This document shows positions 3,520 to 38,217 of a stretch of 64,000 nt of DNA, piece after piece. Origin of the DNA: Verrucomicrobiia bacterium (GTDB lineage Bacteria > Verrucomicrobiota > Verrucomicrobiia > Limisphaerales > JADLHS01); NCBI GenBank assembly GCA_036274115.1, contig DASUGI010000100.1, positions 41,953 through 105,952 of the forward strand, given 5' to 3'. The position numbers were made by a program, and so were the translations under genes. Numbering within the stretch: position 1 is the first letter of the stretch; every line of letters begins with the position of its first letter. The notes beneath the pieces are model-generated. The model had not been told where the DNA came from. It was given only the letters and a program-made list of their open reading frames with translations, and searched no databases.

Positions 3520-3777
3520 ATGAGTGTGACTCTGAATGTCTCGGACGACTTCGCCCGGCGCTTGGAAAGTCAGCCGGAAGCGGCGGAAGCCGAATTGCAT
3601 TTGGAATTGGCCGTCGCGCTTTATCGTTCTGGCAGTTTGCCCGTCGGCAAGGCAGCCCGGGTTGCTGGCATGACCGAGGAACACTTCTCGGAAATCCTGC
3701 AACAACGTCACGTGCCAATGCCCTATTCCCTGACCGATCTGGAACACGACATCGCTTATGCCAGCGGTCGTCGTTGA
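3520..3777 (+). CDS. UPF0175-family antitoxin-like protein
   Basis: 85 aa. The pattern ELHLELAVALYRSGSLPVGKAARVAGMTEEHFSEIL is typical of UPF0175. It overlaps the downstream PIN-like gene by 20 nt. Confidence 0.75.
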   Translation: MSVTLNVSDDFARRLESQPEAAEAELHLELAVALYRSGSLPVGKAARVAGMTEEHFSEILQQRHVPMPYSLTDLEHDIAYASGRR

Positions 3778-4255
3778 TTCCTCGGTGTTAATCACACTCG
3801 CGGCTGGCGAGCAATTCTATCTGCTGCGGGAGTTTTATTCCACCATCCATATCCCGCCCGAGGTTTGGAAAGAAACCACGGCATCGCCAAAAACTTACGG
3901 CGTCCAAGAAGTTCAACGTGCCAAGTCGGATGGCTGGCTGATCGTGCAGTCGCCGCAAGACCTGGCGAAAGTCTCATCACTGCCGTTCAACCTGCAACCT
4001 GGCGAGACCGAGGCTTTGGCGCTCGCTTTGGAGTTGCCCGGCTCGTTGCTTTTGGTGGACGACGCCCAAGGCCGGAGAGCGGCGGCGGCTTTGGGTATCG
4101 CCTATACTGGAACATTGGGCGTGCTGTTGCGCGCAAAAGCTGAAGGAAAAATCCCCGCTTTGAAACCAGTGCTCGGACTACTGGCCGCCAGAACGACGTT
4201 CTGGTTGAGTCCAATCGTCGAAGCCGCTGCTTTGAAACAGGTTGGCGAGAACTGA
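3758..4255 (+). CDS. DUF3368-family PIN-like toxin-like protein
   Basis: 165 aa with N-terminal VVDSSVLITL and later GETEALALA..LLLVDDAQGRRAA..GTLGVLLRAK, the pattern I associate with DUF3368. Paired with a UPF0175 gene. Confidence 0.75.
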   Translation: MPAVVVDSSVLITLAAGEQFYLLREFYSTIHIPPEVWKETTASPKTYGVQEVQRAKSDGWLIVQSPQDLAKVSSLPFNLQPGETEALALALELPGSLLLVDDAQGRRAAAALGIAYTGTLGVLLRAKAEGKIPALKPVLGLLAARTTFWLSPIVEAAALKQVGEN

Positions 4256-28782: not shown

Positions 28783-29556
28783 TCAATTCTGGCTACTCGG
28801 CGGCGCGACAATGACTTCAATCTCTTTCGCCCGTAGCGGGTCAATCAACTCACGTGGCGCCTGGCTGTCGGTAACAATGGTATGGACTTTGGAGAGATCG
28901 CAAAGTTGTGAAACCGAGCGGCGTCCAAACTTGGAAGAGTCCAGGCACATGATGACTTTCGCTGCCGCGCACATCATGGCGAGTTGGATGTCGATCAGCA
29001 ATCCGTGCGAGTTGGTCAATCCATCGAGCGTGATTCCCCCCGCGCTCATTACCGCCACGTCAGCATGGATTTTTGAAAATGCTTCCACCGCGAGCGGACC
29101 TACGAGCACGCCGAGGCGCGGGTAAATCACGCCGCCGCTCACGACGACTTCCACTTTACCGGCAGAGGAATAGAGATTTGCGACGGGCAGGGAATTGGTG
29201 ACGATTTGCGGTGACTTCTCTGCGAGATGTTTCGCGACGTGATAGGGCGTCGTGCCGGCGTCGATGATGACGCTTTGATTCGGACCGATGAGTTCAGCAC
29301 AGGCGCGGCCAATGGCCTCCTTGGCGTCGAGCTGATGGGTGTCGCGTGCGGAGAAAGTGAACTCGTCGGACTTCGGCGCGATAAGGCGCGCGCCGCCATG
29401 GGTGCGTTTCAAATTTCCGGCGGCTTCAAGCACGGTGAGGTCACGGCGGACGGTTGAAACGGACGAGCCGACGTGCTTGGCCAAGTCTTCAAGCGACGCA
29501 AATTCGACCTGCTGAAGGTAAGTTTCCAGCCGATGTTTCCGCTCTTCTGCCGTCAT
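28783..29556 (-). CDS. DeoR/GlpR-family transcriptional regulator
   Basis: N-terminal HTH (ASLEDLAKHVGSSVSTVRRDLTVLE) and a DeoR C-terminal sugar-phosphate sensor domain. Start ATG at 29556; the longer ORF extension runs through a REP element. Confidence 0.88.
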   Translation of the reverse strand: MTAEERKHRLETYLQQVEFASLEDLAKHVGSSVSTVRRDLTVLEAAGNLKRTHGGARLIAPKSDEFTFSARDTHQLDAKEAIGRACAELIGPNQSVIIDAGTTPYHVAKHLAEKSPQIVTNSLPVANLYSSAGKVEVVVSGGVIYPRLGVLVGPLAVEAFSKIHADVAVMSAGGITLDGLTNSHGLLIDIQLAMMCAAAKVIMCLDSSKFGRRSVSQLCDLSKVHTIVTDSQAPRELIDPLRAKEIEVIVAPPSSQN

Positions 29557-32540: not shown

Positions 32541-32689
32541 CCACGGATGAACACTGATAAACACAGATTGGGAAAAAGTCTTACGCGAATTTCGCTAATT
32601 GCCGCGAATTCAGGTTCAATTCGTGTTAATTCGCGCAATTCGCGTCAAACGGTTTTTATCTGTGTTAATTCGTATCCATCCGTGGTTAA
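32537..32689. repeat. Intercistronic nested hairpin repeat (CCACGGATG family)
   Basis: TTAACCACGGATGAACACTGATAAACACAGAT faces ATCTGTGTTAATTCGTATCCATCCGTGGTTAA. Inner arms are ACGCGAATT...AATTCGCGT. Confidence 0.7.
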
Positions 32690-32727
32690 AAATTTCCCTC
32701 AACTCTCAACCATCAACTAACTGAATT

Positions 32728-33108: not shown

Positions 33109-33423
33109 ATGTTCCTCGCCAAAGTCGAAGGTTCAGTGGTCGCGACCAAGAAAGACCCGTCCATGAGTGGGCGCAAGATGCTGTTGCTTCGCCCGCAACT
33201 CGTGGATGAAAAAGATCCCACGAAGTTCCGCCCCGGCGCCAATACCATTGTGGCCGTGGACACGCTCGGCGCGGGCATCGGCGAAATGGTGATGTTCTGC
33301 CAGGGCAGCAGCGCCCGCCTCGCCCCCGGTATGAAAGACGCGCCAGTGGACGCCGTCGTCATCGGCATCGTGGACAGCGTGGACGTGCTCGGAAAACAGA
33401 TCTTTAGCGGGAAAGCAATGTGA
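33109..33423 (+). CDS. BMC-P vertex protein (EutN/CcmL, Pfam03319-type), copy 1
   Basis: MFLAKVEGSVVATKKD...LLLRP...VAVDTLGAGIGEMV...VDAVVIGIVD. Confidence 0.9.
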   Translation: MFLAKVEGSVVATKKDPSMSGRKMLLLRPQLVDEKDPTKFRPGANTIVAVDTLGAGIGEMVMFCQGSSARLAPGMKDAPVDAVVIGIVDSVDVLGKQIFSGKAM

Positions 33424-33431
33424 ACTGGTCG

Positions 33432-33842
33432 TCAGTCAATTCCGAGCCGCCCACGCTCTCGTTCTTCGAAACGAATATCGAGGACGCGCGGACGATTCAT
33501 CAGCAGTGCTTCGGCACTTGCCCGGCCAGTTGGTGTTATCCCGACGATCTTAATGCCGTCCCATCGGAAATGATCGCGCCAGTTGTTCCGCCGAGGATTG
33601 AAAAGAGGCGCGTTCGTCCCGGTTTCGGGATCCAATGCGGTTTGGCGCGCGCCCTTGGACAGCGAACCGGTGACGCAGGCCAGGGCAAGATTTTCCAACT
33701 CCGTCGGACCCCCCGCCGATTGCGGAACAATGTGATCAATGTGGAAGGTTGCTTCCTGGGCGAATTGGGAAAGCAGGCAATACTCGCAACGATTGTGGGC
33801 GCGTTGGATGACGCCCTGTCGCAGATGGTCGGGAACGGTCAT
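33432..33842 (-). CDS. HNH endonuclease-family protein
   Basis: 136 aa: CEYC...HIDHIVPQSAGGPTELENLALAC. It lies antisense to the BMC operon. Confidence 0.85.
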   Translation of the reverse strand: MTVPDHLRQGVIQRAHNRCEYCLLSQFAQEATFHIDHIVPQSAGGPTELENLALACVTGSLSKGARQTALDPETGTNAPLFNPRRNNWRDHFRWDGIKIVGITPTGRASAEALLMNRPRVLDIRFEERERGRLGID

Positions 33843-33846
33843 CCGT

Positions 33847-34071
33847 TCACGCAGCTTGCTTGCGGAGGCGCTCGGAACGCAGACGGAGAAGCGAAAGCAG
33901 ATCGTTCAAGTCTGCCAAACCCTGGGCTTCCCGGCGCTCCTCATCGGTTAGCGGATGGCCGGCATCCTGTTTGTCCAACAATAGATGCAGCCGGCGTTCG
34001 ACCGCTTTTGGCAAGCGCAGCCGATCCTGATCATCGGGCCACTCGATTTCAAACTGAACTTTCTGCGACAT
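33847..34071 (-). CDS. Small hypothetical protein upstream of the HNH gene (74 aa)
   Basis: The ATG at 34071 (MSQKVQFEIEW...) ends 4 nt before the HNH start. Helical, charged C-terminus. The long 228-aa ORF extension is antisense to the aldehyde dehydrogenase gene and was rejected. Confidence 0.5.
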   Translation of the reverse strand: MSQKVQFEIEWPDDQDRLRLPKAVERRLHLLLDKQDAGHPLTDEERREAQGLADLNDLLSLLRLRSERLRKQAA

Positions 34072-34144
34072 ACGCGTCGTCTGTTTCTGGCTCGACCATA
34101 GCAGAATCCGCCGGCGGTGTCCAAGTGCAGAATCCCAAAGAAAT

Positions 34145-35650
34145 ATGAGCGCAGTGAACGAAACTTTGATCCGGGACGTGGTGTCCGAGGTGCTCGGGCG
34201 TCTTGGGGGCAATTCGACCACGACCGTCACGCAATCCGCACCCGCACCTGCCGCGGCGAAGAGCGATTCTTGCGGTTGTAGCACCAAAAAAGCTACGTCT
34301 GCTCCGGCCTTGCGCGGCAAGTTTGGTGTGTTCGCCACAGCAGATGAGGCGTGTGCGGCGGCGCAGGAAGCGTTCTTGCAGTTGCAGCAAAAGGGCATGG
34401 CGGCGCGGCGCAAGATTGAAGAAATCGTCAAGACCATGGCGGAGAGGAACGCTGAGCCGTGGGGCAAAATCGAATTTGAAGAGACGAAGATTGGCAGTCT
34501 GCCGCACAAGGTCGCCAAGCTCGGTCTCATCAAGCTCGTTCCCGGCGTGGATTGGCTGCGACCAGACGCGATGAGCGGCGATCACGGCATCACGCTGGAG
34601 GAATACACGCCGTTTGGTGTGGTTGGCGCGATCACGCCAAGCACGCATTCCATTCCCACGTTGAGCGGCAACATCGTCAACATTTGCGCAGCAGGAAATG
34701 CCGTGGTGTTCAATGCGCATCCGAGCGCGGCGAAGTGCGCGGCGGTGGCGGTGCGCGCTTACAACGAGGCGATCTATCGCGAGACCGGTATTGAGAATAT
34801 CGCGTGTATCATTGAAAAGCCGACGCTCGATTCTTTCAACGCACTTTGCAAAAACGAAAACACGAAGCTGCTGCTCGTCACCGGCGGACCGATGGTGGTG
34901 AAGGCGGCGATGCAGACCGGCAAGCGCGCCATCTGCGCCGGCCCAGGCAATCCGCCCGTTTTCGTGGACGATACGTGCTGCACCACACGCGCGGCCAAGG
35001 CGATTATTTCCGGCGCCGCGTTCGACAACAATCTGCTGTGCATCGGTGAAAAACAGGTGTTCGTGCTCGATCATGTGGCGGACAAGCTGATGCAGCGCAT
35101 GTCGGAGAACGGCGCGGTGAAGTTGAATGCGGCGCAACTGGAGAAACTTACGAAGGCAGCATTTACGTTCAAGGAAGGGCAGGGCGGTGGTTGCGCTCAT
35201 GCCAGCGTGAACAAGGAACTGATTGGCAAGGACGCGAGCGTGCTGGCCCAGGCGGCGGGAATCAACGTGCCGGCAGATGCGCAGCTTTTGTTTGCCGAGA
35301 CGGATGTGAATCACGCCTTCGTGCAGGAAGAGCAGATGATGCCGATGTTACCGATTGTGCGCGTGAAGAGCGTCGAGGAAGGCATCGCGTTGTCGTTGCA
35401 GTCCGAGCATAACTACAAGCACACGGCGGTCATTCACTCGCACGATGTCGAGAACATCACCGCGATGGCGCGCTCTCTCGATACCACGCTGTTTGTAAAA
35501 AATGGGCCGTCACCGGCTGGCCTTGGTCTGGGCGGTGAAGGTTATCTGAGTTTTTCCATCGCTACGCCGACAGGTGAAGGCATTACGAATCCGCGCACGT
35601 TTACCCGCGTGCGGCGCTGTGTGATGGTGGATAATCTCCGCATCTATTAA
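34145..35650 (+). CDS. CoA-acylating aldehyde dehydrogenase (PduP/EutE-like)
   Basis: N-terminal amphipathic helix (ETLIRDVVSEVLGRL) and a low-complexity linker, then an ALDH fold with the catalytic-Cys context NNLLCIGEKQ. Confidence 0.9.
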   Translation: MSAVNETLIRDVVSEVLGRLGGNSTTTVTQSAPAPAAAKSDSCGCSTKKATSAPALRGKFGVFATADEACAAAQEAFLQLQQKGMAARRKIEEIVKTMAERNAEPWGKIEFEETKIGSLPHKVAKLGLIKLVPGVDWLRPDAMSGDHGITLEEYTPFGVVGAITPSTHSIPTLSGNIVNICAAGNAVVFNAHPSAAKCAAVAVRAYNEAIYRETGIENIACIIEKPTLDSFNALCKNENTKLLLVTGGPMVVKAAMQTGKRAICAGPGNPPVFVDDTCCTTRAAKAIISGAAFDNNLLCIGEKQVFVLDHVADKLMQRMSENGAVKLNAAQLEKLTKAAFTFKEGQGGGCAHASVNKELIGKDASVLAQAAGINVPADAQLLFAETDVNHAFVQEEQMMPMLPIVRVKSVEEGIALSLQSEHNYKHTAVIHSHDVENITAMARSLDTTLFVKNGPSPAGLGLGGEGYLSFSIATPTGEGITNPRTFTRVRRCVMVDNLRIY

Positions 35651-35759
35651 GTTCGAAACCCGAAATCCGAATGCCGAAAGAAATCCGAAATCCGAAATCC
35701 GATGGACGACAAGCCTCCGAGGGAGCGGAGCGTTTGGGTTCGGAATTTTGGGTTTGGGA
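35651..35759. repeat. CCGAAAT heptamer array followed by a complementary TTCGG/TTTGGG segment
   Basis: CGAAACC CGAAATC CGAATGC CGAAAGA AATCCGA AATCCGA AATCCGA (35654-35702), then GTTTGGGTTCGGAATTTTGGGTTTGGG. Confidence 0.7.
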
Positions 35760-35826
35760 AGACGGGCGTGGGGAGAATGATGGTGTACTGCGAGATGAAC
35801 CACCCGGCAAGACGCCGCCGAATCTC

Positions 35827-36156
35827 ATGGAACGAGTTGCGGTGTTTGGAGAGCGGATTGTCAGATTCGCGAAGAAGATTCCAAGAGGTGTGAATCACCC
35901 TGAGAATAATCGGCTGATAGATCAATTGGTCGGCGCGGGCACAAGTATCGGAGCAAACTATTGCGAAGCCGACGACGCGGTTTCTGGGAAGGATTTCAAA
36001 TGTAAGATCGGGATCAGTCGCAAAGAGTCCAAGGAAACCATGTTTTTTCTCAGAATGATTGCAGCGTCTGAAGAATCTTTGGCGGACGAAGCGCGCGAAC
36101 TTTGGCGGGAAGCCAAAGAGCTAAACCTGATCTTTGGTTCTATGTGGAGAAAGTAA
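35827..36156 (+). CDS. Four-helix-bundle protein (23S rRNA intervening-sequence / Avd-like family)
   Basis: LIDQLVGAGTSIGANYCEA...KIGISRKESKETMFFLRMI is the family signature. The start is uncertain: ATG 35827, while the ORF opens at 35671 inside the repeat. Confidence 0.8.
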   Translation: MERVAVFGERIVRFAKKIPRGVNHPENNRLIDQLVGAGTSIGANYCEADDAVSGKDFKCKIGISRKESKETMFFLRMIAASEESLADEARELWREAKELNLIFGSMWRK

Positions 36157-36166
36157 AAGCCTATGA

Positions 36167-36309
36167 CCGAAATCCGAAGTCCGAAAGATGGCCGAAAACC
36201 GGAATTCGAATCAAATGCGCGGTTTGCTTGCGCGGATTTTGATTCAGCTTCGGGCTTCGGGTTTCGGATTTCTTTCGGATCTCGGCCATCGGATTTCGGA
36301 TTTTGATTC
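36167..36309. repeat. Long hairpin built from CCGAAAT / ATTTCGG heptamers
   Basis: CCGAAATCCGAAGTCCGAAAG...GAATTCGAATCAAA faces TTTGATTCAGCTTCGGGCTTCGGGTTTCGGATTTCTTTCGG...GGATTTCGG. Confidence 0.7.
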
Positions 36310-36310
36310 T

Positions 36311-36589
36311 ATGCTCCTCGCACGTGTCGAAGGCAACATCGTGGCGACTCGGAAACATCCGAGCCTCGATGGCTGGCGGCTCGTGATTTGTCAGCCCATC
36401 GGCGTGGATGGCCAGGCTGAAGGCGCGCCGCAGATTGCCATTGATGCGCATGGCGCGGGCATGCATCAGCAGGTGGTGATTTCGTCGGACGGTGCCGCGG
36501 CGCGCAAAGCGGTGGGTGACGAGAAGAGTCCGGTGCGCTGGCTGGTGATTGGTGTGGTGGATGAACATGAACCGGGAGTGAGAGTATGA
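36311..36589 (+). CDS. BMC-P vertex protein (EutN/CcmL), copy 2
   Basis: MLLARVEGNIVATRKHPSLDGWRLVICQP...IAIDAHGAGMHQQVV...WLVIGVVD. Start ATG at 36311. Confidence 0.88.
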   Translation: MLLARVEGNIVATRKHPSLDGWRLVICQPIGVDGQAEGAPQIAIDAHGAGMHQQVVISSDGAAARKAVGDEKSPVRWLVIGVVDEHEPGVRV

Positions 36590-36709
36590 AAAATCCGAAA
36601 TCCGAAATCCGAAATCCGAAGACCGAAAAATCCAGTGACGCTCGAATCCAACTTTCGGATGTCGGGCTTCGGACTTCTTTCGGATTTCGGGTTTCGATCT
36701 TCGGATTTC
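36590..36709. repeat. Long hairpin built from CCGAAAT / ATTTCGG heptamers
   Basis: AAAATCCGAAATCCGAAATCCGAAATCCGAAGACCG faces CGGGCTTCGGACTTCTTTCGGATTTCGGGTTTCGATCTTCGGATTT. Confidence 0.7.
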
Positions 36710-37034: not shown

Positions 37035-38078
37035 ATGAAGAATGTCATCAGTTTAAAAGATTTGGAGCAGATGGTCCGCAACGGGCAGAGCTTGAACAAC
37101 CTGCCTGCAGACGCGATTCTCACGCCGTCGGCGCGGGAGTTCTTACAAGACCGCGAGATGAGTTCCGCGCTGAGAAACGGCGCGTCGGAAGCAAGGACAG
37201 TTGCGGGGCCACCGGAAAGGCCGCTCTCGTCGAAAAGTTCGCGCGCCGAGTTGGAAGCGTTTTTCAATTCGGCTTACGCGCACAGTTTGAAGGAGCAGCT
37301 TTGTGATGTGGGCCGGCGGTTGTGGCAGCGCGCTTACGTGGATGGCAACGGAGGGAACATTGCGATTCGCGTTGGTGAAGACATTGCCATTTGCACGCCC
37401 ACGTTGGTGAGCAAGGGTTTCATGAAGCCCGAGGACATGTGCCTCGTGGACTTTGAGGGCAATCAACTCGCTGGCACGAAGAAGCGCACCAGTGAAATCC
37501 TCATGCATTTGCAGATCATGAAGAAGCAGCCGAAGGCGGTGGCGACGTGCCATTGTCATCCGCCATACAGCACGGGCTTTGCAGTGGCTGGGCTGGTGCC
37601 ACCGACGTGCATGATTCCGGAGTATGAGGTGTTCGCGAGCGTGGCGATTGCGCCGTATCGCACGCCGGGGACGCCGGAGATGGGCAAGCTCGTTTCCGAC
37701 CTGGTGGACAGGCACAACACGATTTTAATGGCGAACCACGGCGTCGTTTCGTGGAGTCACAACAGCGTTGAAGATGCCTACTTCAAGATGGAAATCCTGG
37801 AGGCGTATTGCCGCACCGTGCTCGTGACGGCGCAGCTCGGCGTCGCGCCAAAGACGATGTCGCCGAACCAACTTCAGGATTTGCTGAAGATCAAGCAAAG
37901 CCTTGGCATCCCCGATCCGCGCCACGGTTTGAAGGAATGCGAGCTTTGCGACAATGACGAGTGGCGTCCCGGGGTGACTTGCGCTGTGCCGGCAAGAGAG
38001 ACATCCGTGGGATATGATGCGGAAGCTGAAAAGGCGGTGCAGGCGATTACGGAACAGATCCTGGCACGAATGAAATGA
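37035..38078 (+). CDS. Class II aldolase/adducin-family protein (fuculose-/rhamnulose-phosphate aldolase-like) with N- and C-terminal extensions
   Basis: Core motifs GNGGNIAIR, SEILMHLQI, HCHPPY and MANHGVVSW. A ~75-aa N-terminal and a ~50-aa C-terminal extension flank the core. Ends with the amphipathic helix AEKAVQAITEQILARMK. Confidence 0.85.
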   Translation: MKNVISLKDLEQMVRNGQSLNNLPADAILTPSAREFLQDREMSSALRNGASEARTVAGPPERPLSSKSSRAELEAFFNSAYAHSLKEQLCDVGRRLWQRAYVDGNGGNIAIRVGEDIAICTPTLVSKGFMKPEDMCLVDFEGNQLAGTKKRTSEILMHLQIMKKQPKAVATCHCHPPYSTGFAVAGLVPPTCMIPEYEVFASVAIAPYRTPGTPEMGKLVSDLVDRHNTILMANHGVVSWSHNSVEDAYFKMEILEAYCRTVLVTAQLGVAPKTMSPNQLQDLLKIKQSLGIPDPRHGLKECELCDNDEWRPGVTCAVPARETSVGYDAEAEKAVQAITEQILARMK

Positions 38079-38214
38079 AAAATCCGAAGATCGAAATCCG
38101 AAATCCGGAGGAAGTCCGAAGCCCGAAATCCGTAGTTGGTTCTCGTGGGCTGGCGGTACATTCGGGCTTCGGAATTCGGGATTCTTTCGAATTTCGAAAT
38201 TCGGATTTCGAATT
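38079..38214. repeat. Long hairpin built from CCGAAAT / ATTTCGG heptamers
   Basis: AAAATCCGAAGATCGAAATCCGAAATCCGG...GCCCGAAATCCG faces CATTCGGGCTTCGGAATTCGGGATTCTTTCGAATTTCGAAATTCGGATTTCG. Confidence 0.7.
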
Positions 38215-38217
38215 TTA

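Follow-up and report, generated by a model that had tools for sequence, protein, structure and literature searches.

A two-gene cassette encoding a 74 amino acid protein and a 136 amino acid HNH nuclease is located on the antisense strand between the BMC-P and aldehyde dehydrogenase (ALDH) genes of a BMC operon in the window, a term used here for the complete 64,000 nucleotide stretch of DNA that was analysed. This cassette probably represents a self-contained, horizontally mobile, toxin-antitoxin (TA)-like selfish or defence module residing in an insertion hotspot, rather than a component of the BMC. We suggest that the downstream gene of the pair encodes a small DNA nuclease of the HNH (ββα-metal) type, related to the Septu protein PtuB and presumably toxic, and that the upstream, translationally coupled gene encodes a helical-hairpin protein of 74 amino acids which would bind and restrain this nuclease. 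The pair would be transcribed from its own σ70-like promoter, the -35 hexamer of which has short direct repeats on either side that possibly serve in autoregulation, and is proposed to have colonised what is normally a 7-nt spacer between BMC-P and ALDH in BMC operons of the Planctomycetes-Verrucomicrobia type. It may persist at this junction by addiction, through a defence benefit, or by both, and may have been exchanged between related BMC loci when homologous sequences in their conserved flanks recombined, while standing outside the function of the BMC, with operon transcription reading through it. The anatomy of the cassette fits a TA-like module, given the small upstream gene, a promoter of its own, strict co-occurrence of the two genes, independence of genomic context, carriage on plasmids, TA neighbours and the existence of copies with damaged nucleases.

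Every coordinate in the initial annotation could be confirmed to the base from the ORF list and the raw sequence, and its placement of an antisense 74 amino acid ORF and a 136 amino acid HNH protein between BMC-P and ALDH agrees with the Pfam identities of the genes. The left flank is formed by the BMC-P (EutN/CcmL pentamer) gene (33109..33423, plus strand; Pfam EutN_CcmL; e-value: 7.9e-29), whose stop codon converges on that of the HNH gene (33432..33842, minus strand; Pfam HNH PF01844; e-value: 5.9e-10), coding for a PtuB-like mini HNH protein, across a spacer of 8 nt (33424..33431). A spacer of the same length recurs in three of the compared loci (L001, L040 and L084), and in the window it leaves no space for a terminator. 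The small partner gene (33847..34071, minus strand) extends from an ATG at 34071 to a stop codon at 33847-33849, with 4 nt between it and the HNH start. A further 73 nt (34072-34144) separate its start from the ATG of the ALDH gene (34145..35650, plus strand; Pfam Aldedh; e-value: 2.1e-21), which forms the right flank and retains an intact N-terminus. The tight fit described earlier, on both sides of the cassette, is consequently as the sequence has it.

The surrounding genes are arranged in the order PTAC-type phosphotransacylase (so called on the basis of synteny with L001), two BMC-H, acetate kinase, BMC-H, BMC-P, ALDH, BMC-P and a further downstream gene, represented in L163 by a class II aldolase ortholog. 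The BMC shell gene at 32728 matches the Pfam BMC model, and we take the locus to be a Planctomycetes-Verrucomicrobia-type BMC locus involved in fucose/rhamnose degradation. A plus-strand ORF of 242 amino acids (33420-34148) spans the whole cassette and is read as the antisense shadow of the cassette genes. The many homologues and low dN/dS values of the two minus-strand ORFs indicate that these are real genes rather than chance ORFs, and the occurrence of the cassette at the identical junction in fifteen independent assemblies argues against an assembly artefact. Composition provides no signal, the GC content being 58% in both the cassette and the window, and no structured RNA was detected by Rfam between positions 29000 and 40000.

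The window HNH protein holds the sequence CEYC...HIDHIVPQSAGGPTELENLALAC and scores above the curated thresholds for both PF01844 (39.6 bits; cut-off: 21.4) and PF14279 (28.4 bits; cut-off: 27.5), while the catalytic residues of the ββα-metal motif are also present, as is characteristic of the HNH superfamily. The HNH core comprises residues 19-63, and there is a conserved C-terminal domain (FNPR..W..HF.W..GRAT..MNR). Residues H34, D36, H37 and N51 are invariant across 120 HNH homologues and are present in the window protein. More than 2,200 homologues of approximately 136 amino acids occur in the Verrucomicrobia, Planctomycetes and Cyanobacteria, and the annotation of a Verrucomicrobiae MAG includes an identical protein. 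By sequence, the window protein comes closest to the models of the Septu PtuB and retron-type HNH proteins and to the IscB and Cas9 HNH domains, each of them scoring far below its cut-off. PADLOC PtuB matches residues 7-125 (e-value: 8.4e-8), while the NCBIfam PtuB model scores 11.4 bits against a cut-off of 150. With the PtuB score below the family cut-off and the ATPase absent from the cassette, membership of the Septu (PtuAB) systems was rejected. The IscB and Cas9 models match in their HNH domain only (34.7 bits against 175 and 23.7 against 375, respectively), and a sequence search of the PDB likewise returned only Cas9/IscB-type HNH domains as solved relatives. An RNA-guided nuclease of the IscB/Cas9 type was also rejected, as the protein has only 136 amino acids and consists of the HNH domain only, while Rfam is silent between 29000 and 40000. 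The AF2 model of the HNH protein (pLDDT 62) is too poor for a fold search. One longer protein, P0081 (225 amino acids), was considered as a fusion and discarded, its N-terminus being an unrelated extension.

Both cassette genes are under purifying selection. When the window cassette is compared with the orthologous cassette of L001, whose ALDH is 93% identical, dN/dS amounts to 0.11 for the HNH gene and 0.02 for the small ORF, with values of 0.04-0.08 for the flanking genes. The window nuclease does, however, carry a substitution (C59G) at codon 59 (33666..33668, minus strand), where GGT (Gly) is found in place of the zinc-ligand Cys of the second CxxC of the HNH family. This position is Cys in 117 of the 120 homologues, with Gly in the window only, and the L001 codon is TGT. 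Three of the four zinc ligands (C19, C22 and C56) are retained, such that the window protein lacks the four-Cys CxxC...CxxC zinc feature which the family as a whole displays. From what is generally known of zinc-stabilised HNH folds, C59G should destabilise the enzyme, and the window nuclease is probably attenuated by it. Disrupted HNH ORFs are also found in L090 and L151.

Homologues of the small ORF are likewise widespread, with at least 123 recovered by word search and 708 representative small-protein clusters by an exhaustive profile search. The Pfam, NCBIfam and PADLOC models yielded no matches to the small ORF, and a relaxed Pfam scan of 41 members of the small-protein family gave scattered, chance-level hits (best e-value: 0.03). 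The AF2 model of the small protein (pLDDT 89.5) predicts an extended N-terminal segment followed by two helices (22-36 and 43-73) arranged as a hairpin, for which Foldseek found no significant structural neighbour (best e-value: 0.42). A recognizable DNA-binding domain of the RHH, HTH, AbrB or Phd type was absent from the Pfam and NCBIfam scans and the fold search. Lacking both a DNA-binding domain and a significant structural neighbour, the small protein provides no support for classical antitoxin autoregulation. Its most likely role is that of a putative neutraliser, or antitoxin, which would bind and restrain the nuclease.

The two genes form a conserved, stand-alone and horizontally mobile module. 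Searching metagenomes with the HNH alignment gave 80 loci, to which a locus from a Tautonia genome was added, and a small-ORF homologue is located directly upstream and on the same strand in 75 of the 78 HNH genes of this set with enough upstream sequence (96%). The spacing between the two genes is -4 nt in 28 of these loci and +4 nt in a further 17. They are, as such, adjacent, co-oriented, coupled and co-occurring small genes in the manner of type II TA pairs, and the co-occurrence that the initial annotation had suggested looking for is borne out. The module is also distributed independently of context. In Tautonia, the pair has a DNA-alkylation repair gene on one side and a VWA gene on the other, in a Gemmataceae MAG it is found between DUF1501 and PSCyt2/PSD1, and in Phormidesmis it adjoins a DUF433/DUF5615 TA pair, while other copies are located next to genes for LpxK, an O-antigen ligase, a NACHT protein and a DNA methylase. 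The neighbours outside of the BMC context are mostly unrelated housekeeping genes. More distant HNH relatives (40-50% identity) are carried by 35 cyanobacterial plasmids, and in all three of the plasmid loci that were inspected a distantly homologous small ORF is located directly upstream of the HNH gene. This mobile distribution, plasmids included, is likewise a trait of type II TA modules, while no relatives were found among 50,697 phage records. The presence of the stand-alone pair in unrelated contexts and on plasmids lends support to the earlier view of a selfish, TA-like or defence-type two-gene module.

A promoter-like site (TGGACA-17 nt-TATGGT, with a TG-extended -10; 34095..34123, minus strand) was called as σ70-like by a consensus scan approximately 52 nt upstream of the small-ORF ATG. 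The pattern TGGACA-N17-TAnnnT is found at a matching distance in 12 of 72 cassettes. Seven of these are at the BMC junction (window, L001, L032, L087, L123, L136 and L163) and five are located elsewhere (L089, L093, L096, L097 and L161), suggesting that the promoter belongs to the mobile unit. A near-match is found in L150, while in the subgroup of L040, L084 and L085 a TTGATT hexamer, read by eye as a -35, abuts the ALDH start codon. The -35 hexamer of the window is bracketed by a direct repeat composed of two GCAGAATCC copies (34101-34109 and 34127-34135, minus strand), which may function as an operator. Immediately ahead of the -10, the sequence TTCTGC is also found in L032, L150 and L163, and L087 has a shifted copy.

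The 73-nt gap preceding ALDH yielded no promoter-like site on the plus strand, and no terminator-like site lies between the HNH gene and BMC-P. ALDH would therefore rely on read-through, and transcripts of the cassette would run antisense into BMC-P. Expression of ALDH through read-through across the antisense cassette is the most likely arrangement on this sequence, and the consequences proposed previously, namely read-through and antisense RNA, appear reasonable.

Comparison with orthologous BMC loci indicates that the cassette is an insertion. A protein scan with ALDH of species-representative genomes yielded 80 orthologous loci (ALDH identity: 58-95%), to which the window and the metagenome cassette loci were added, and the distance between BMC-P and ALDH was measured in each of the resulting 89 loci. 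Four further cassette loci, with too little ALDH sequence or found later, stand outside this tally. The junction measures 60 nt or less in 50/89 loci, with a mode of exactly 7 nt (e.g. TGA-TTGAACT-ATG), and between 60 and 300 nt in 19/89, several of which are filled by hairpin-rich repeat elements. Other inserted genes are found in 8/89 loci, the HNH cassette in 11/89, and one locus could not be scored. The window ALDH is 93-95% identical to orthologs with empty junctions. Among the loci whose ALDH is 95% identical to that of the window, the junction is empty in L005 (15 nt), while L002, L003 and L004 hold other content. The cassette itself is present in only two of the 80 species-representative genomes (L032 and L040). 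With close relatives empty or differently filled, the ancestral state can be taken as a tightly coupled BMC-P/ALDH pair into which the cassette was inserted. This agrees with the initial annotation, which regarded the cassette as inserted rather than as a BMC accessory and proposed a comparison of related loci: the two genes are not conserved at this position in all relatives, and BMC-P is directly followed by ALDH, at 60 nt or less, in the 50 loci noted above. The last codon of BMC-P was also changed by the insertion, the protein ending in ..GKAM* in the window and in ..GKA* in empty-site relatives. Neither a target-site duplication nor terminal inverted repeats were found at the cassette ends. 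ALDH and the downstream genes are still strongly constrained, suggesting that the insertion is tolerated.

These comparisons also bear on whether the cassette has been domesticated as a BMC accessory or regulator, such that it, or its antisense transcription, tunes shell stoichiometry or ALDH expression. Such a role could explain its recurrence at one junction, always antisense and with purifying selection on both genes, and a promoter pointing toward BMC-P with no intervening terminator. However, the majority of related BMC loci, the closest ones among them, lack the cassette, which makes a dedicated BMC role unlikely, and a fixed position across the orthologous loci, as expected of a core component, was not observed. 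The same module is furthermore found in non-BMC contexts and other phyla, and other loci hold unrelated genes or nothing at this junction. We consider a domesticated function highly improbable. Literature searches on HNH genes in BMC loci returned nothing relevant.

The cassette is found at the BMC-P/ALDH junction, always antisense, in at least fifteen assemblies (window, L001, L032, L040, L082, L084-L088, L114, L123, L136, L150 and L163). The cassettes of L086 and L088 are identical, leaving fourteen distinct cassettes. The two cassette genes are spaced at +4 nt in 14/14 of the junction loci measured, and also in L163 by its called gene coordinates. The junction furthermore hosts a variety of unrelated cargo. 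A Bro-N protein is encoded there in L002, L013 and L020, and L150 has a 245-nt Bro-N remnant next to its HNH cassette. L003 carries a GmrSD_N+HNH enzyme, L071 carries PD-(D/E)XK (PDDEXK_3) genes, which are also seen as fragments in L054 and L010, and unknown ORFs are located in L025, L046 and L163. The junction is also occupied by palindromic repeat elements of several kinds. The BMC-P/ALDH junction is a hotspot for small nuclease-type genes and repeats in subdivision-3 (Limisphaerales) Verrucomicrobia. Given this hotspot and the recurrence in at least fifteen loci, the presence of the cassette is not a one-off accident, and since unrelated cargo and repeats collect there too, the hotspot is independent of the cassette nuclease. 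A tight operon junction can receive selfish nuclease genes again and again while the operon survives, which bears on the annotation of BMC loci and on operon robustness.

With a type IV restriction enzyme of the GmrSD type and PD-(D/E)XK nucleases among it, the alternative cargo can also be read in terms of anti-phage or anti-plasmid defence. The cassette would then form a small islet within the operon, with a PtuB-like HNH effector held by a small sensor or inhibitor and released on infection. The similarity of the HNH protein to the Septu PtuB and retron-associated HNH models points in the same direction, as do the non-BMC copies adjoining a NACHT protein and a DNA methylase and the carriage of the module on plasmids. 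However, all PADLOC and NCBIfam scores, that for PtuB among them, are far under the family cut-offs, a PtuA-like ATPase is absent, and the contexts consist mostly of housekeeping genes rather than defence islands. A dedicated defence role may be advanced tentatively, at a fairly low probability, and it overlaps the TA-like reading more than it excludes it.

The history of the cassette differs from that of the genes flanking it. Cassette loci are scattered over the ALDH tree and interleaved with empty loci, and divergence of the cassette genes is poorly correlated with that of ALDH (Spearman: HNH, 0.22; small ORF, 0.04), while the divergences of the HNH gene and the small ORF co-vary (Spearman rho: 0.56). 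Between L040 and L114, the ALDH proteins are 93% identical and the flanking DNA 80-88% identical, with the cassettes near saturation (54% and 65% amino acid identity for the HNH protein and small ORF, respectively; 59-63% nucleotide identity). In a tree of the concatenated pair, a clade A found only in BMC loci (window, L001, L082, L086, L040, L084 and L085) was recovered in 99/100 bootstraps, along with a looser group B (L032, L150, L114, L123, L163, L087 and L136). Nested in the latter are L096 and L089, whose sequenced flanks harbor no BMC genes, and L092, whose flanks are too short to judge. Monophyly of all BMC-context cassettes was obtained in 1/100 bootstrap replicates, but types A and B lie next to each other when the tree is left unrooted. 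L001, L040 and L084 share a homologous left junction despite an ALDH identity of only 78-79%, and flank identity profiles display no clear co-conversion gradient. Simple vertical inheritance was set aside in view of the incongruence between cassette and ALDH. This incongruence and the tree point either to repeated entry of the cassette into the junction or to one ancient colonisation event, after which the resident was shuffled among loci by recombination through the conserved flanks and occasionally escaped.

A TA module inserting at random would not be expected to keep to the antisense orientation or to occupy one junction in two deep lineages. Both features could be explained by a homing-type element, whereby the HNH nuclease would cut cassette-less BMC loci at or near the junction and repair would copy the cassette in from a filled allele, with the small partner helping or regulating the nuclease and the conserved flanks allowing spread among Verrucomicrobia. 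For free-standing HNH homing genes, mobE of phage T4 provides a precedent (PMC2790892). Homing would account for two deeply diverged lineages sharing one orientation and one 7-nt spacer in closely related genomes, and for the occupation of one junction in at least fifteen loci scattered among empty sites. Constant orientation and +4 nt spacing at every BMC-junction locus measured, the incongruent cassette phylogeny, the homologous left junction despite diverged ALDH proteins, and a presence/absence polymorphism between conserved genes among close relatives are also consistent with such an element. However, the family retains 55-65% identity in many phyla and unrelated contexts, which is easier to reconcile with a generic activity than with recognition of one specific junction, and a two-gene architecture in 96% of loci is at odds with the single-gene nature of homing endonuclease genes. 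Furthermore, the flanks lack a clear co-conversion gradient, and unrelated cargo and repeat elements use the same junction. Homing is as such treated as a minority hypothesis, and an unlikely one, with the TA-like selfish or defence module being retained as the probable explanation.

Among known systems, the free-standing HNH homing genes of T4-like phages (PMC2790892, PMC2988022) resemble the cassette in that a small HNH gene is wedged between otherwise adjacent conserved genes, with a presence/absence polymorphism among relatives and a phylogeny incongruent with that of the flanks. The cassette differs from them in its location in a chromosomal bacterial operon, in its obligatory second gene, and in belonging to an HNH family that is found in many other contexts and has no phage relatives. 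Should homing prove true, free-standing homing would not be limited to phage and organelle genomes and would have as its vehicle a family of hundreds of clusters. The recurrence of the site in any case provides a tractable system in which to examine whether chromosomal HNH genes are able to home. The best-scoring relatives of the nuclease, the Septu PtuB and retron HNH proteins (TIGR02646; PADLOC PtuB), share with it the core and part of the C-terminal region. Unlike the Septu and retron systems, however, the cassette encodes no PtuA ATPase, reverse transcriptase or ncRNA, and its HNH protein is about two-thirds of the length of the PtuB models (136 amino acids against about 210-260 positions) and paired with a 74 amino acid protein.

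In colicins E7 and E9, an HNH DNase is kept inactive by a small helical protein, Im7 or Im9, which is encoded adjacently. The cassette likewise places an HNH DNase gene beside that of a small helical protein, by which the nuclease would be restrained. The colicins are, however, secreted multidomain toxins with the immunity gene downstream, and Im7 and Im9 fold into four-helix bundles, to which the small protein showed no similarity in sequence or fold (Foldseek).

The type II TA systems share a larger number of traits with the cassette. In both, two small co-oriented genes are joined by a 4-nt overlap or spacing, with the gene for the small protein upstream and that for an enzyme (here of approximately 136 amino acids) downstream, and the pair possesses its own promoter and a patchy distribution over chromosomes and plasmids, where other TA pairs may be adjacent and occasional copies have a damaged (putative) toxin. 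The cassette departs from type II TA systems in its putative toxin, an HNH DNA nuclease, which is a class of type II toxin not found in the literature searched, and in its partner, which has no RHH, HTH, AbrB or Phd-type domain and falls in no described family. Our literature searches, in a limited library, returned no published TA family combining a small helical protein with an HNH nuclease. The small helical-hairpin protein and the PtuB-like mini HNH together represent a candidate new module family, present in at least three phyla. If these do form a TA or defence pair, an HNH DNase would be added to the repertoire of type II toxins, along with a new fold for its neutraliser.

The junction between the BMC-P and ALDH genes, at which the HNH cassette is located in the window, is a hotspot in related BMC loci (comparison loci L002, L013, L020, L003, L071, L054, L010, L046, L025 and L163). 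The genes found at this site in relatives encode Bro-N proteins, a type IV restriction-like enzyme combining GmrSD_N and HNH domains, PDDEXK_3 (GxxExxY) nucleases or fragments thereof, and products of unknown function, all of which are co-directional with the operon, whereas the HNH cassette is not. In locus L150, a 245 nt remnant of a Bro-N gene (3732-3976) is situated between BMC-P and the HNH stop codon, which indicates that successive insertion or replacement events have taken place at the BMC-P/ALDH junction.

Palindromic and hairpin-rich elements also occupy the junction. In the closest relatives of the window, a hairpin-rich element of approximately 220 nt is present (L004, 5774-6000; L006, 908-1134; L007, 5731-6000), with several stems that pair perfectly (AGCCGTGGGCTTCAGCCCACGG and GACCCCGCAGGGGTC among them), and its last 34 nt recur upstream of the BMC-H gene in the window (32662-32695). 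This element may represent either a MITE or a structured RNA. The junction of two further relatives (L027, 2167-2262; L031, 5905-5999) is filled by a perfect palindrome of approximately 93 nt (ACGGAGCGCGGACAGCTTGTCCGCG ... CGCGGACAAGCTGTCCGCGCTCC), which is another small mobile or structured element. In L042, the BMC-P/ALDH gap is taken up by the same CCGAAATCCGAAA-rich palindromic repeat that fills several intergenic spacers of the window's BMC operon (35661-35702, 36168-36304, 36589-36708 and 38073-38216), and whose spurious translations read PKSEIRNPKSE and SDFGFRISDFG.

Copies of this repeat flank a forward-strand gene (35671-36156) that separates the ALDH gene from the BMC-P gene following it, is co-directional with the operon and codes for a four-helix bundle '23S rRNA intervening sequence protein' (PF05635; e-value: 2e-9). 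Aside from the window, this gene is found at the identical position only in L007, L042 and L150, and it therefore represents a second patchy insertion within the BMC operon.

In the promoter of the cassette, two copies of a direct repeat, GCAGAATCC, lie on either side of the -35 hexamer (34101-34109 and 34127-34135) and constitute a candidate operator; a TTCTGC motif immediately 5′ of the -10 hexamer is kept in other cassettes. The residue at position 59 of the HNH protein is a zinc-ligand cysteine in 117/120 homologues, as well as in the orthologous cassette of the relative L001, but is a glycine in the window (reverse strand, 33666-33668), and the nuclease of the window may consequently be attenuated. 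The metagenome loci L090 and L151 carry a truncated or split HNH reading frame downstream of an intact small ORF. This pattern, in which the nuclease decays and its partner is retained, is the one to be expected of a toxin-antitoxin pair.
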